Assembly: GCA_965279305.1 (NCBI GenBank) | Contig: OZ257143.1 | Location: 540,001-572,000, forward strand | Length of the DNA: 32,000 bases | From: Gammaproteobacteria bacterium | GTDB taxonomy: Bacteria > Pseudomonadota > Gammaproteobacteria > JBIOEC01 | Direction: 5' to 3' | Part shown: one piece after another, positions 1-6,000 of the stretch | Position numbering within the stretch: the first letter of the stretch is position 1 | Layout of the letters: each line of letters begins with the position of its first letter | Program-made: the position numbers

Positions 1-3000
1 TGTTTCAGGGCGACCCACGGGAATATAAATACCGGGGAAAGATAAGCAGCCTTCTTGTCCTAAAATTTCACCGTGAGTATCTACCAATTCTGGATTAATA
101 AGACACATAGGTTCATTACCTTTATCACTCACATCCACCACGATCAAACGTTGCTTCACGCCCACTTGTGTAGCGGCTAAACCCACACCGCGATCATGAT
201 ACATAGTTTCCCACATATCATTAGCGAACTTGAAAACTTCTTTATTAATTTCCGTAATCGGCTCCGCTTTTTCGCGAAGCTTAGGGTTTGGGTGAAGTAA
301 TATTTCTAAAACACTCATAGCGCTCTCATTATTTTTTATAATGGGTTGGATATGGCAATCGCGCCACTCCGGTATCTACTGCTGCACGTGCAACGGCTGG
401 TGTTACAAAATCCATCAAGCGAGGATCTAATGGTTTTGGAATAATATAATCAGGACCAAAACGTAACTCTTTTATTTTATATGCTGCTAACACTTCTGCA
501 GGCACAGGTTCATGCGTTAGTTTAGCAATTGCACGCACAGCTGCCATTGTCATTTCCTGATTAATTTTAGAAGCGCGAACATCAAGCGCACCACGGAAAA
601 TATACGGAAACCCTAATACATTATTTACCTGATTAGGATAATCACTACGACCGGTAGCCATAATAATATCTTTACGCACTTCATGCGCTAATTCAGGTTT
701 AATTTCAGGATCCGGATTTGATAATGCAAACACAATAGGTTTTGGCGCCATTGTTTTTAACATTTCGGCTGTTAAAATATCAGGACCTGATACACCAATA
801 AATACATCCGCATCTTTCATCGCATCGGCTAATGTGCGGCAAGGTGTATCAATTGCAAATGCAAATTTATACGCATTTAAATCGGTACGACCTGAATGAA
901 TAACACCTGTTCTATCTACCATTAATAAATTATCGCGCTTAGCGCCTAAGTGCACTAATAATTTCATGGTGGCAATACCAGCAGCACCCGCACCAATACA
1001 TACGATACGCGCGCTTTCTAATTTTTTACCTTGTAATTCTAATGCGTTCAACAAACCAGATGCCACAATAATAGCGGTTCCGTGTTGATCATCATGAAAT
1101 ACGGGAATATCTAAGCGATCGATTAATGCATTTTCAATTTCAAAACATTCTGGCGCTTTAATATCTTCTAAATTGATCCCACCAAATGTAGGTGAAATAT
1201 TGGCAACCGTTTCAATAAACGCTTCTGGGCTATTCGCATTCACTTCGATATCAAATACATCGATATCGGCAAAACGTTTAAACAGCACGGCTTTACCTTC
1301 CATCACTGGCTTGCCTGCTAATGCACCCGTATTGCCTAAACCTAATACCGCCGTTCCGTCAGTAATCACGGCTACCAGGTTTCCTTTATTCGTATAAAGG
1401 TAAGCGGCGTCTGGATCGTCGGCGATCACACGTACCGGTTCTGCCACACCTGGCGAATACGCCAACGAAAGATCCCATTGAGTTTCAGTAGGTTTAGTAA
1501 TGGCAACCGCTAGCTTGCCCGGTTTGGGTTTTGAGTGATAATCCAAAGCAGCTTGCTTTAACTGTGCATTCATTTCTTCCGTTGCCATACTTTACCTACT
1601 GTTTAATGTAATAAAAGAGCTATTTTACCATAGTTAAATCCAGAGATCTTCTTGCTATCGAAAGGTCTGTGTTCTATGCTTATTTAACTCAAATTGCTGA
1701 ATTCGTGATGGGTCAAATAGCTTGCCAGAATGCCCAGAACCCGTTTTTTTGATTGTAACGCATCTCCCATACATGATAGATTAATAGAGAACAGAAAACA
1801 GAGGCCACCTCCCATGAAACATGCCGTTATCACTTTAGCTTCCGTCACTGCTGCACTTGTTGCCTTAGATATGTCTAGCAGCACAGTTACATGGGCCAAT
1901 AATAGTGATGGCACACTTACCTATGTGGAAAAAACGCCTGAAGCAGGCTGGAATAACGTTCCTCAAACCTTAGCACCTGGCCTAGATAACGAAACCACAC
2001 CGGCCACATTAGATGCCTCTCCCATGAATGGTTCTCTTACTTACACTATTACCGAAGAATCAGATCATTATGAATTTGATATCATTTTAGAAGGAGCTTC
2101 CTGCAGCACACGCGGTACCATGAGCTGTAAACCGGTTGATGGAACTAGCGCTCCTAACAGACTGTGCGGTACTGATGGAAAAGGACCTACGGTATATGAA
2201 GTTACCGCTACCCCCACATTAGAAACCGACAATATCAGCATCACCTGTAACGTTGATGTACAAAATTTAGGCGACAACGCCGATTACGTGCCTCATGTGA
2301 AAAAACTGACACTGGAACATGTTCAGTTCTTAAATTGGAATAGCAGCCAAAAAGCCCCTGGAATGATTGAAACTTTCACCTCTCCTCAGGGCGATCATTA
2401 TATTGCTGTGGCAGAAACGGGAACCTCAGGGCTTATCCATCCTAAAACTGCAAAACCTCAAGTTATTTATATATATAGTTGGGATGGTACAGAATTTAAA
2501 CTTAATACCACTATTCCGGCTGTTAGTGGCCAATATGTCAGTGCTATGAACTTCTACACCACATTGGCTAATAAAAACGTTGAATACTTCCAAGTCGCAT
2601 ACACCTATGCCACTAATGATAAAAATATTGGTAGATCCCGTATATTAGGGTATTACTTTGATCATAATCCCGCTGTTAATACTTTTGTCCTGGACAAAGA
2701 CCGTAGTAGTTCGCCTACATATGCTATTACTGGTCGCAATGGAATATCCGATCTTCAATTCTTTGAAGATACAGCAGGACCCAAACTGTTAGTGGTTGAA
2801 TCCGGTAACGAATATACTGGCTTCAATCAAAGAAGCTGGGTATACAATTGGAACGCCGAATGCTCATGCTTTAGCAACAGTTCTCGAAACGCAAGCACGT
2901 ATGTAAATACATACGGTGCTCTTAGTGTTGACGCTTATACAGAAGACGGTAAGCAATTCTTCTCATTTGCTAATGAGCATAATCATCAACGATACAATCT

Positions 3001-6000
3001 CGATAATTATATTTCGCAATTTACCACAGCATTTGCAAATACAACAACGACCCCCTTAAAAACGTTTGCTGCAAAAGATTGGGCACATTTTACCGTAGCT
3101 GAAGATGCCGGTTACACTTATTTAGTGCAAATTAACGGGATGTATGACTTAGCCTCCACTACGCCTAGCGCTCCTAGCCATGAAAGCTTGGTTTATAAAT
3201 CAACGGAAGGTGCAGCAGGACTATCTCAGCCGATTAAAGATCTTCCTTTATATGTGAGATCGTGGGAAGCTGTTGCGTTGGAAGGAAAAAATTATTTCTT
3301 TGTAGGTTATTCAAAAGATCCGGGTGATGAAGATAAAAGAAAAGAGCATTTAATTTATAACTGGTGTACCACTGCAGACGTAGCTGAAAACGGCAACTGG
3401 TGTAAGGGTAACCAAGGCCAATATCTTTATGCTTATCCTAGCGACTATTTCACTATTCCTGAAAATGCGTCTTCTTATCCTTTAACATTTGATTGGAAAC
3501 ACCTGGAAATAGATGGTGAAACTTATCTTGTTCGGATAGACAATACCAAAACAGGTACCAATACAACACAGGTGTTAAAAGCTAGCTTGAAATAATAACT
3601 GGCATTAATTGACGAGGATACTATGAAAATTTTAATCGGTTTATTAAGTGCAACGCTAAGCTTTTCTGCTTATAGCCTTACGATAACCAACACTGCAAAC
3701 GCCGATTTTGGTAATGTAGATATACAAGGTATTGCAGAGCTTCGTGATGGTATTCCTGGAACCAATCCTGGAACCTTAGTCATGTTCGAAAGATATGACC
3801 AAACCTTTTACGATAGAGGAATTCCCCATCTTTCTGTTGATATAAGAAGACATGATGGCCAAAGCGTTACCTATAGAGTATGGGCGCCTAATTACAATAA
3901 TGTGGGTTGGATTACGGTATATGCTAACTCTTGTGAAATTACCTTTAATGGTGTAGCTACTGAAGCTGCCGTCTTTAGCGATCAATGTTATTAAAACCAG
4001 TGAGGATATTATATGTCGTTAATTAAATCTACTTTATTCACCCTGTTAACCTTATTTATGTGTAATGCTCACGCGGTTACTGTTTGGCTAGCGGATGATG
4101 CTTTGCGCAACCAAGATTGGTATAACATACAAATAGGATATCAGAAGGTAGCAGGCAATGGATGCAGCGAAAGTAATATGACGCACAATGTTAGAATTGA
4201 AAAAGCTCGCTTTGGATATGATTTCTCCACACCGTTTCCCACTGCGGCAACTGCTAATGAAAAAATTTGTCTGATCACTCAATGTACCAAAGGTGGTGTT
4301 GTGTGCCCAGGTGGTAACTTTAAAATTTATGAATCACTTGCAGTTAAAAATGTTCCAGAATGCACGATCAAAATAATAAACAATGAAGACAATCGGTTTG
4401 AATACACCACCGAATGCGGTGTTTAATAAAAGGGGCTTTAAGCCCCTTTTTTTTAACTCTTTTTTCTCTTCCCTTCTCTCTTTTTCATTAGCTGCAATAT
4501 ATAGTTTCTCTGCTACACTTTATATAAGTGGAGGACATGTATGATGGATAAAGTTAGTTATATTCGGCAGTTTAGACCTTCTGTATTACTCGTAGAAGAT
4601 GATGAATTAACACAAAAAATTGAAGCATATACCTTCCAAGAGTTGGGCTGCGAAGTTTCTACTGCAAAAGATGCACAAACCGCTTTAAAAGCATTAGATA
4701 AACCTTTTGATATTATTGTATTAGATGTGGGTTTGCCTGATCAAAGCGGCGTACGTTTAGCAGAAGCTATTCGACACGGCCGTACCAAACAAAATCATAA
4801 TACCCCTATTGTTGTTGTTAGTGCTTACGCAACTGAAATTGATCGCCAACGTTATTTAGGCGCAGGCGTTGATAATGTATTAGCAAAACCCATGGATCAT
4901 GAAAAAATTAAAGATATGCTCATGCAAATTGTAGATAAAAATCCCCCCAGACACTAAATAATCCAGCCATTCTAAAAACGTGTGAGACGAGGCAGAGGTG
5001 CCACAAAAATGCGGAGTATATGCGTTTATATGTGAGCATTTTTTGTGACACCTCTAACAAAGTATCACGCGTTTTTAGGATGGCTGGGGTTGCTTTTTTT
5101 CTTCACAACAGGTAATGTTTCACCTTATTTGGCACACTCATGTGCTATTAGTTCAATGAAGGAAGTGCGGGTCTGCAACAAGGTTTTTTTATAAGAATCT
5201 TATTATTGGCCAGTATTATGTTGGTGTAGAGGCAAGACATGTCAGACGCGAGAGAAACAGGAATAGTTAAATGGTTTAGCAATAAAAAAGGATATGGATT
5301 TATCGCCCGTGATACTGGCGGCGGAGATGTATTTGTTCACTTTAGATCCATTCGCGGTGAAGGTTATCGTTCATTGAAAGACGGACAGCGCGTAGAATAC
5401 GCGGTGGTTACCGGTAAGAACGGCTTACAAGCCGAAGATGTAAACGAACTTTCATAAGCAAAGTCAGCACACTATTAAGATCAGGACACTCGCAAAGTGC
5501 GTCAGACGAGGCAAAAGTCGTCAGAAAAAGCGGATTGTACTTTTGTTACATGAGCATTTTTCGGACGAATTTTAACGAAGTATCACGCACTTTTGCGTAA
5601 GTCCTGGGATGCTTTATTTACATAAGAGAATATTATGCCAAGCTTTGATATCGTATCAGAAGTTGATCGTCACGAACTCAGCAACGCACTGGATCAAGCC
5701 AGTCGCGAACTCACTACTCGTTTTGATTTTAAAGGCGTTAAAGCGGCTTTTGAAATCACTGATTTAGAAATTCAATTAACAGCAGAAGAACCTTTTCAAT
5801 TAAAACAAATGTTAGATATTTTGCAGCTTAAATTAAGTAAGCGCGGAATTGAAATGGGATCCTTAGAAATTTTACCTGCTAATATTCAAGGCAGAGAAGC
5901 CAAACAATTAGTTAAAGTTCGCCAAGGTATTGAAACTACATTAGCTAAAGAAATTGTTAAAATTATTAAGAATGCAAAACTAAAAGTGCAAGCAGCTATT

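Follow-up and report, generated by a model that had tools for sequence, protein, structure and literature searches.

A predicted exported EPTP/EAR-type propeller protein encoded within an accessory, allelically divergent gene cassette of a gammaproteobacterium

Propellers of the EPTP/EAR type are familiar from LGI1, ADGRV1 and TSPEAR, human genes implicated in epilepsy and deafness, and we are not aware of any bacterial EPTP protein with a known function. The present study concerns a stretch of 32,000 nucleotides (nt) from a Gammaproteobacteria bacterium (assembly GCA_965279305.1, contig OZ257143.1, positions 540,001 to 572,000; hereafter “the window”) which close to its beginning harbours the gene of a 593-amino-acid (aa) protein predicted to consist of a Sec signal peptide, a Cys-containing N-terminal domain and a seven-bladed EPTP/EAR-type propeller. 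As in the metazoan proteins LGI1-4, TSPEAR and ADGRV1 (PF03736; 5Y2Z, 5Y31, 9KZC), a secreted protein bears seven repeats which correspond to a propeller of seven blades, and the strand motifs (D)WE.F, YL.VA and.IY.W....F are common to both. The spacing of the repeats, however, amounts to 53 to 77 aa with long loops in the window protein compared to about 45 to 50 aa in its metazoan counterparts, to which the individual blades show very weak similarity. Where the latter carry leucine-rich repeats (LRR; LGI), LamG/TSP-N (TSPEAR) or Calx-beta/GPCR (G-protein-coupled receptor) modules (ADGRV1), the window protein features a predicted beta-sandwich of about 100 aa which belongs to no known family. 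Furthermore, its gene is bacterial and shares a putative operon with the genes of two small exported proteins.

The closest relatives outside its own subfamily are bacterial EPTP-repeat proteins (Chloroflexota, Streptomyces, Sinorhizobium and many of metagenomic origin) which have in common with the window protein a unit consensus reading F..Q.IpT.GA.DWE., then 13 letters, then ..N.s. and a further 12 letters. While canonical bacterial members are composed of very regular 50-aa repeats, score 120 to 700 bits against Pfam and in many cases carry PKD, Big, CARDB, RTX or PEP-CTERM domains as fusions, the window protein scores 26 bits, lacks these fusions and possesses an N-terminal domain of its own. 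The fold family itself is already known; the degree of divergence, the N-terminal domain, the two co-inherited small exported proteins and the polymorphic, present-or-absent cassette appear to be undescribed.

In a scan against Pfam-A (E ≤ 10) EPTP (PF03736) was the only family matched by the window protein, whose score of 26.3 bits (E = 8e-6) exceeds the gathering cutoff of 21 bits, although this total adds up from weak stretches, of which the strongest alone reaches 12.9 bits. Automated Pfam annotation already labels the protein PF03736. A HMMER search with a profile made from two orthologues against 1.84 billion representative proteins (E ≤ 1e-3) yielded 44 hits, one being the window protein. 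Forty of the 43 others match Pfam EPTP at E ≤ 1e-3, the best at 5e-210. The architecture of the window protein is shared wholly or in part by P0003, P0004, P0029 and P0041, the last of which comprises the N-terminal domain only. Together with the window protein and P0002 they form the small, lineage-specific subfamily emerging from these searches; the family profile derived from it (A5) contains seven members. No match resulted from a direct phmmer search of PDB sequences with the window protein, from scanning genome contigs with a two-sequence alignment, from scanning metagenome contigs with alignment A4 or from tblastn of the window protein against plasmids, and a word-indexed search for homologues, queried with the protein as well as with the family alignment, returned nothing beyond the window protein and one orthologue. 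NCBIfam, PHROGs and PADLOC gave nothing meaningful for any of the three proteins of the cassette.

The first-pass annotation had described seven repeats resembling EAR/EPTP blades at intervals of 53 to 77 aa. Recomputation places the beginnings of the seven xY(L/F)xV strands at aa 195, 257, 324, 381, 434, 493 and 570, with spacings of 62, 67, 57, 53, 59 and 77 aa, in full agreement with this description. According to the structure predicted by AlphaFold2 (AF2), these strands represent the second and the “second strands” of the earlier description the third strand of each four-stranded blade (Table 1). A hidden Markov model (HMM) of the repeat unit, 52 aa in length and derived from 186 repeats of canonical bacterial EPTP proteins cut from hits outside the subfamily, scores 43.4 bits across six blades of the window protein, a seventh being found in P0003, the orthologue in which alone this model detects blade 2. 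Applied to aa 167-593 it reaches 41.6 bits compared to a maximum of 8.8 bits in 500 shuffles, so that the repeats exceed chance. Comparison of profile A5 with the unit profile by hhalign reveals exactly seven non-overlapping matches, four of which have probabilities of 80-97% and two of about 40%, while blade 2 reaches 3%. The strands of blade 2 are predicted by AF2 with values of 75-87 in the predicted local distance difference test (pLDDT). Blade 4 is the one nearest to the canonical EPTP unit, and blade 7 contains the sole stretch separately reported by Pfam EPTP (aa 560-573). The repeat motifs are degenerate, above all in blades 2 and 6. Inspection of the window DNA revealed no repetition at the nucleotide level among the blades, which therefore must be considered old and divergent. 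Finally, hhalign aligns the family profile with the EPTP fragment of human LGI1 (residues 61-323 of chain 5y2z_B) over 255 columns in blade register with a probability of 91.7%, whereby blade 1 is matched to IETFKIEN / WYFVVADS / TIYKWNGNGF of LGI1.

An AF2 prediction on the basis of two sequences turned out to be unusable (pLDDT 41). The model used subsequently, for which six sequences were supplied, displays seven times four strands with a mean pLDDT of 63.4 and a predicted template-modelling (TM) score of 0.67; blades 1-3 and 7 mostly attain pLDDT values of 74-93. The strand LTLEHVQF, predicted just ahead of blade 1, would constitute the fourth strand of blade 7 and thus close the ring in the manner of a “Velcro”, because the C-terminus supplies only three strands to blade 7. 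The motif is conserved among the seven homologues with Gln171 being invariant. Foldseek comparison of the model with the PDB, a check suggested along with the first-pass annotation, places LGI1 EPTP chains on ranks 1 to 5, the best match being 9kzc_B (E = 3.1e-10; root-mean-square deviation (rmsd) 4.9 Å; TM score 0.73 as normalised to the target). These ranks are followed by WD40, DDB1 and sialidase propellers from E = 4e-7 onwards, the LGI1 match thus being about 1000-fold better than those to generic propellers. The viral fold library BFVD yielded generic or sialidase-like propellers only. As judged from this model, the protein would adopt a seven-bladed fold resembling the EPTP domain of LGI1. 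Taken together, the Pfam match, the relatives retrieved by HMMER, the hhalign comparisons and the Foldseek ranking back the assignment as a seven-bladed EPTP/EAR-type propeller.

The presence of sialidases and other enzyme propellers among the Foldseek matches (E of about 1e-6 to 1e-5; rmsd for sialidases 8-10) raises the question of whether the protein might be an exported hydrolase or lyase of the sialidase/BNR, lactonase or glutaminyl cyclase type, the more so as three EPTP relatives weakly match the Pfam Lactonase model. Yet, their scores are poorer than that of LGI1 by a factor of about 1000, neither Pfam nor NCBIfam reports an enzyme family even at E ≤ 10, BNR and sialidase families of Pfam included, repeated Asp-box motifs are absent as read from the sequence, and no conserved set of catalytic residues is present in the propeller across the seven homologues. 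We consider an enzymatic function improbable. What is invariant in the propeller are the repeat-core residues Trp, Phe, Thr, Gly and Tyr, and because of this the propeller is better understood as a putative binding scaffold; the same is suggested by its bacterial relatives being adhesin-like multidomain proteins and by the EPTP domain of LGI1, the one that has been characterised, being a protein-binding platform.

The first-pass annotation had also regarded the EPTP family as essentially metazoan and the protein as eukaryote-like. While the EPTP propeller and its signal peptide are supported, the eukaryote-like nature is not. The closest relatives outside the subfamily (E down to 9e-12 and up to 60.8 bits in the HMMER search) join EPTP repeats to PKD, Big_5, Big_13, CARDB, RTX, PEP-CTERM, Lcl_C or Peptidase_S74 domains and hence are of bacterial type; one of them is a “CARDB domain-containing protein” of a Chloroflexota bacterium (NCBI MFC2059551.1). 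In addition, tblastn with a canonical member uncovered open reading frames (ORFs) on a plasmid of Streptomyces mirabilis and on pBSY16_1 of Sinorhizobium sp. RAC02 which score 160 and 122.7 bits, respectively, against Pfam EPTP. Thus, canonical EPTP occurs in Streptomyces, Sinorhizobium and Chloroflexota, and a comparison of bacterial and metazoan closeness by profile searches went against the latter, as bacterial-type EPTP was matched with up to 60.8 bits and LGI1 was left unmatched. When the window-family profile was run against PDB sequences by hmmsearch at E ≤ 10, it retrieved no chain at all, LGI1 included, whereas the canonical bacterial EPTP protein P0005, one of the HMMER hits, matches LGI1 chains at E = 2e-11. 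For this reason, the sequence comparisons point to an offshoot of the bacterial EPTP branch which has diverged strongly and is tied to LGI1 by profile and fold comparison only.

These results bear on the idea that the propeller was taken from an animal or another eukaryotic host and imitates LGI/TSPEAR in order to engage ADAM22/23-like receptors. The best structural match in the PDB is LGI1, the family profile aligns with LGI1 in register, the organism is related to Legionellales or Berkiella, which live intracellularly, and a 909-aa ankyrin protein is encoded nearby in a related genome. However, any EPTP protein would be expected to have LGI1 as its top match in the PDB since structures of bacterial EPTP proteins are, to our knowledge, lacking. 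By sequence, the window protein is nearest to EPTP proteins of bacterial type, EPTP is present in free-living Streptomyces and Sinorhizobium, the family profile does not find the LGI1 chain by HMMER at E ≤ 10, and the window protein contains neither an LRR nor a LamG domain. In our view such mimicry is very unlikely, even though the prokaryotic EPTP domain of a sponge-symbiont archaeon has been regarded as that of a eukaryote-like protein (PMC7848895). Our literature search found this paper as the sole mention of prokaryotic EPTP and no paper linking EPTP to Legionella.

The longest frame of the gene extends from 1730 to 3595 on the forward strand, with the in-frame ATG at 1814 giving rise to 593 aa, in accordance with the secreted protein of about 590 aa proposed earlier. 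We take position 1814 to be the real start because orthologues in four other assemblies begin with the same MK... and because AGAGG is located 9 nt upstream, as it also is in locus L083 whose orthologue is 37% identical. The N-terminus, MKHAVITLASVTAALVALDMSSSTVTWA preceding NN, represents a typical Sec signal peptide as read from the sequence, and contains no lipobox. Its residues Ser23, Trp27 and Ala28 are invariant in all seven family members, and the leading stretch of about 50 aa is identical across three genomes. For the adjoining region a beta-sandwich is predicted by AF2 at residues ~70-160 (pLDDT ~58-68), and neither Pfam (run on aa 1-175) nor NCBIfam reports a match for it. It indeed contains cysteines, as noted in the first-pass annotation, namely Cys97, Cys105, Cys118 and Cys145, of which Cys97 and Cys145 are invariant in the seven homologues. 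P0041, a protein of 137 aa encoded on a Logan contig of 2.8 kb, consists of a signal peptide and a homologue of this beta-sandwich and has no propeller. It may derive from a truncated gene or simply from a short contig; as a stand-alone sequence it suggests that the N-terminal domain is an independent module.

To judge from the sequence, the propeller gene is the first of a three-gene operon. It is separated by 27 nt from the ORF of a 123-aa protein which, in turn, is followed after 18 nt by that of a 137-aa protein (Table 1). No Pfam, NCBIfam, PHROG or PADLOC family was matched by the two small proteins, and hhalign, applied to them as possible paralogues, aligned their signal peptides only. 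The three genes are found in the same order in L001, L084, L083 and L086/L087. L001 and L002 contain the cassette between the genes of malic enzyme and of a response regulator, their flanking proteins being 98.6-99.3% identical to those of the window. It is also present in L084 (PBP1A 98% identical to that of the window), in L083, a contig with the response-regulator gene and without the malic-enzyme gene (PBP1A 84% identical, as read from L090 of the same sample), and, at the same site, in L086/L087 (PBP1A 67% identical), where the products comprise 555, 136 and 162 aa. The cassette is absent from L085 and L088 (PBP1A 70% and 65% identical, respectively), in which the malic-enzyme and response-regulator genes are adjacent. 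Because in these two loci the response-regulator gene is situated directly beside that of malic enzyme (compared were positions 13417-15496 of L085, 6848-8695 of L088 and 14755-17376 of L086), the cassette is an accessory unit with a fixed place on the chromosome, between the malic-enzyme and response-regulator genes. We found no convincing direct or inverted repeats or mobile-element scars flanking it, and scans for tRNAs and Rfam families returned none. Among 80 species representatives of GTDB inspected for malic-enzyme synteny, none has the cassette or def-fmt-rsmB neighbours.

Two loci differ in what surrounds the cassette genes. In L086 a HigB/HigA-like toxin-antitoxin pair (Gp49 and HTH_37; 13877-14347) and a 63-aa ORF are situated between cassette and response-regulator gene. 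The gene of P0004, a family member of 26% identity (JGI 3300050821), has a different neighbourhood with ffh, dapB and a HepT/MNT toxin-antitoxin pair and is followed by ORFs of 82 aa and 182 aa which belong to no assigned family.

The presence/absence pattern is difficult to reconcile with a periplasmic housekeeping scaffold of the TolB or BamB kind which serves envelope assembly. Such a role would be in keeping with a signal peptide devoid of a lipobox, with an architecture of propeller plus N-terminal domain resembling that of TolB and with the chromosomal housekeeping neighbourhood. But the gene is missing at the same site in related genomes, its product exceeds the flanking proteins in amino acid divergence by about 40-fold, and no TolB or BamB profile is matched, rendering this role extremely unlikely.

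Compared with L001, nucleotide identity amounts to 97-100% up to position ~1920, falls to 80% by 1981-2040, then lies between 27% and 83%, for the most part at 45-70%, as far as ~4407 and rises again to 83-97% further on. The flanking gene products of the window and L001 are nearly identical (dS and dN, synonymous and nonsynonymous substitutions per site): 98.6% for malic enzyme (dS 0.27, dN 0.008), 99.3% for the response regulator (dS 0.18, dN 0.003) and 98.8% for YajQ (dS 0.26, dN 0.009). By comparison, the propeller protein shows 58% (dS 1.12, dN 0.30), small protein 1 43% (dS 1.63, dN 0.51) and small protein 2 45% identity (dS 1.42, dN 0.46). Synonymous sites within the cassette are hence saturated (dS ≥ 1.1 compared to 0.18-0.27 in the flanks). 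It follows from the identity profile that promoter and signal peptide are shared. The mature protein and the two small genes, on the other hand, represent a different, much older allele class. L084, which is as distant in its housekeeping genes, carries an L001-type allele at 86% aa identity. Allele replacement or mosaicism has taken place at the cassette. Amino acid divergence exceeds that of flanking genes about 10-fold within the same allele class and about 40-fold between different classes. A similar contrast is seen towards the L083 lineage, where identity drops from 87.6% for the response regulator to 34-37% for the propeller protein and 23-29% for the small proteins. Sliding windows across L001 5277-7121 and L084 15930-17783 reveal an alternation of segments in which dS is 0.14-0.3 with others of 0.7-1.0, the latter corresponding to residues ~251-375 and ~503-577 of P0002. 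These two alleles of one class are thus mosaics, which suggests intragenic recombination. Such a combination of old alleles and recombination is commonly encountered in molecules that face hosts, phages or competitors.

A conserved leader in front of a hyperdivergent body and two equally divergent small exported genes downstream, the entire block changing its allele class together and being present or absent among relatives, are reminiscent of polymorphic toxins. In an antagonism cassette the propeller would act as a bacteriocin- or toxin-like factor and the small proteins as periplasmic immunity proteins or partners, with allele classes kept by competition between strains. Unlike in polymorphic toxins, however, the divergent bodies are homologous propellers rather than swapped toxin domains, and no toxin, immunity or defence family is matched in Pfam, NCBIfam, PHROGs or PADLOC. 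Neither are secretion-system or delivery domains encoded nearby nor were orphan immunity genes seen. We would give an antagonistic function a small chance, comparable to that of an enzymatic one.

The reading that we favour, and deem reasonably probable, is that of a Sec-exported two-domain protein with a diverged EPTP propeller which is borne by an accessory operon cassette and serves as an extracellular binding scaffold. A disulfide-containing N-terminal beta-sandwich would be followed by a seven-bladed EPTP/EAR propeller whose ring is probably closed by the N-terminal strand. The propeller would act outside the cytoplasm as a non-enzymatic scaffold, and the two small exported Cys proteins, which are inherited, lost and diversified together with it, probably work together with it and may be its partners in a complex. 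An external target, be it a host, a competitor or a phage, would drive the turnover of alleles at the locus. Fold family, export signal, operon structure, presence/absence and allele divergence are supported directly; to these we add by inference the binding function, the complex with the small proteins and the nature of the target.

Several observations weigh against this reading. Single blades each remain below the HMMER filters when compared with Pfam EPTP. Within the family, scores against EPTP amount to 43.5 bits (P0004), 32.8 (L086), 29.0 (P0029), 26.3 (window), 19.4 (P0002) and 15.6 (L084), with none for P0003, so that four of the seven members reach the Pfam cutoff and three fall short of it. 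The unit-HMM test is partly circular as the units came from hits to the profile of the query itself, the Pfam assignment of the proteins that supplied them being independent of the query. The confidence of the AF2 model is moderate, with aa 390-418 and 442-454 below a pLDDT of 50. With respect to selection, dN/dS between L001 and L084 is mostly 0.1-0.25 throughout, and no pairwise sliding window exceeds 1, as positive selection would require it; the divergence could instead stem from recombination with a distant lineage combined with relaxed constraint.

A more far-reaching version of the binding-scaffold reading holds that the cassette is an undescribed secreted recognition system of Legionellales-like bacteria in which the propeller and its Cys-rich partners bind a molecule of a host cell or competitor, while balancing or frequency-dependent selection preserves very old alleles in the population and intragenic recombination shuffles them. 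We regard this version as unlikely, if worth considering. A role in host interaction, which the first-pass annotation had thought plausible, is compatible with the probable Legionellales affinity of the organism and with the fast evolution of the locus; both fit but fall short of proof. Like the eukaryote-like exoproteins of Legionella which are exported by type II secretion (PMC6617341, as a concept), the window protein combines a signal peptide with a domain regarded as eukaryote-like in a probably Legionellales-related host. Unlike these, it shows no homology that we could find to a characterised type II substrate of Legionella, and EPTP is not specific to eukaryotes.

Table 1. Positions of the propeller gene, its predicted domains and blades, and the accompanying cassette features in the window
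Feature	Position	Strand	Basis or remark
Propeller-protein gene, 593 aa, stop codon included	1814..3595	+	ORF call, Pfam, HMMER, AF2, Foldseek
Sec-type signal peptide, aa 1-28, predicted cleavage after TWA	1814..1897	+	read from sequence
N-terminal region, aa 29-164, no known family	1898..2305	+	AF2 strands; homologue alignment
Strand LTLEHVQF, aa 165-172, candidate “Velcro” closing strand	2306..2329	+	AF2 strand just ahead of blade 1
Blade 1, aa 181-236 (MIETFTSP / HYIAVAET / VIYIYSW / FKLNTTI)	2354..2521	+	hhalign aa 181-228, 79.6%
Blade 2, aa 240-295 (EYFQVAY / ILGYYF), most divergent	2531..2698	+	hhalign aa 242-280, 3%, E=0.013
Blade 3, aa 304-358 (KLLVVES / SWVYNWNAECSCF)	2723..2887	+	hhalign aa 309-348, 84.8%
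Blade 4, aa 361-413 (TYGALSVDAY / QFFSFANEHNHQRYNLDNYISQF)	2894..3052	+	hhalign aa 362-407, 96.8%, E=2.4e-10
Blade 5, aa 414-475 (AKDWAHFTV / YTYLVQI / SLVYKS)	3053..3238	+	hhalign aa 414-467, 96.2%
Blade 6, aa 477-545 (RSWEAVALEG / NYFFVGY / HLIYNWC), Cys518-Cys530 loop	3242..3448	+	hhalign aa 477-520, 39%
Blade 7, aa 556-593 (FDWKHLEIDGETYLVRIDN / QVLKASLK)	3479..3592	+	hhalign aa 558-580, 40%
Operon gene 2, 123-aa exported protein, signal peptide, C-terminal Cys pair (C...SDQC)	3623..3994	+	
Operon gene 3, 137-aa exported Cys-rich protein, signal peptide, C-terminal Cys pair	4013..4426	+	
Terminator-like hairpin, 10-bp stem then T-run, ending the operon	4428..4450	+	intrinsic type
Hyperdivergent block compared with near-identical L001 and L084	1980..4410	.	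mature protein from ~aa 56 and both small genes

The organism is probably an uncultured gammaproteobacterium near Legionellales/Berkiella, an affinity which is suggested by the identities of malic enzyme and PBP1A. The former is at best 72-73% identical to homologues from uncultured Gammaproteobacteria and from a metagenome-assembled genome (MAG) of Candidatus Berkiella, and 69% to that of Legionella brunensis. For PBP1A, close relatives at 98, 84 and 65-72% identity are followed at about 52% by Berkiella, a “Legionellales bacterium” and other gammaproteobacterial MAGs. The GC content amounts to about 39%, and the 1.87-Mb contig suggests a reduced genome. In L088 the gene of a 909-aa ankyrin-repeat protein (11511-14240) is inserted between rsmB and trkA, which fits a host-associated lifestyle of the clade.

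Further features were noticed elsewhere in the window. The reverse strand encodes at 6138-7186 a “mobile mystery protein A/B” pair (helix-turn-helix protein TIGR02612 and Fic-domain protein TIGR02613), which is situated between yajQ and the gene of PBP1A. The pair also occurs in L084 and partly in L090, and is absent at this position from L085, L086 and L088. At 9777-12082 on the forward strand a PilM-like gene overlaps the directly following gene of a PilQ-like secretin, with no pilN/O/P in between; this compact arrangement is common to all related loci (L084-L090). On the reverse strand, 14364-23994 comprises a sugar-modification-like cluster which contains a second 3-dehydroquinate-synthase-like gene (sugar phosphate cyclase type), genes of an HpcH/HpaI aldolase, a short-chain dehydrogenase/reductase, a 608-aa thiamine pyrophosphate enzyme, two nucleoside diphosphate-sugar dehydratases/epimerases, a DegT aminotransferase and a nucleotidyltransferase, and a 375-aa ORF without Pfam match. 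At least its first five genes are found in L084, where the locus ends, and it is not located at this position in L085 and L086.

With regard to the family, EPTP/EAR propellers are common, yet unstudied modules of bacterial extracellular proteins, so that an EPTP protein in a bacterium need not be a eukaryote-like acquisition. Within this bacterial branch the window protein would represent an extreme, fast-evolving offshoot whose locus displays old allele classes in otherwise near-identical genomes. Should a ligand be found, this would provide a first function for bacterial EPTP repeats as well as a handle on an uncultured, probably host-associated clade; and if the cassette were truly a recognition system, it would offer, along with that first function, a tractable model.

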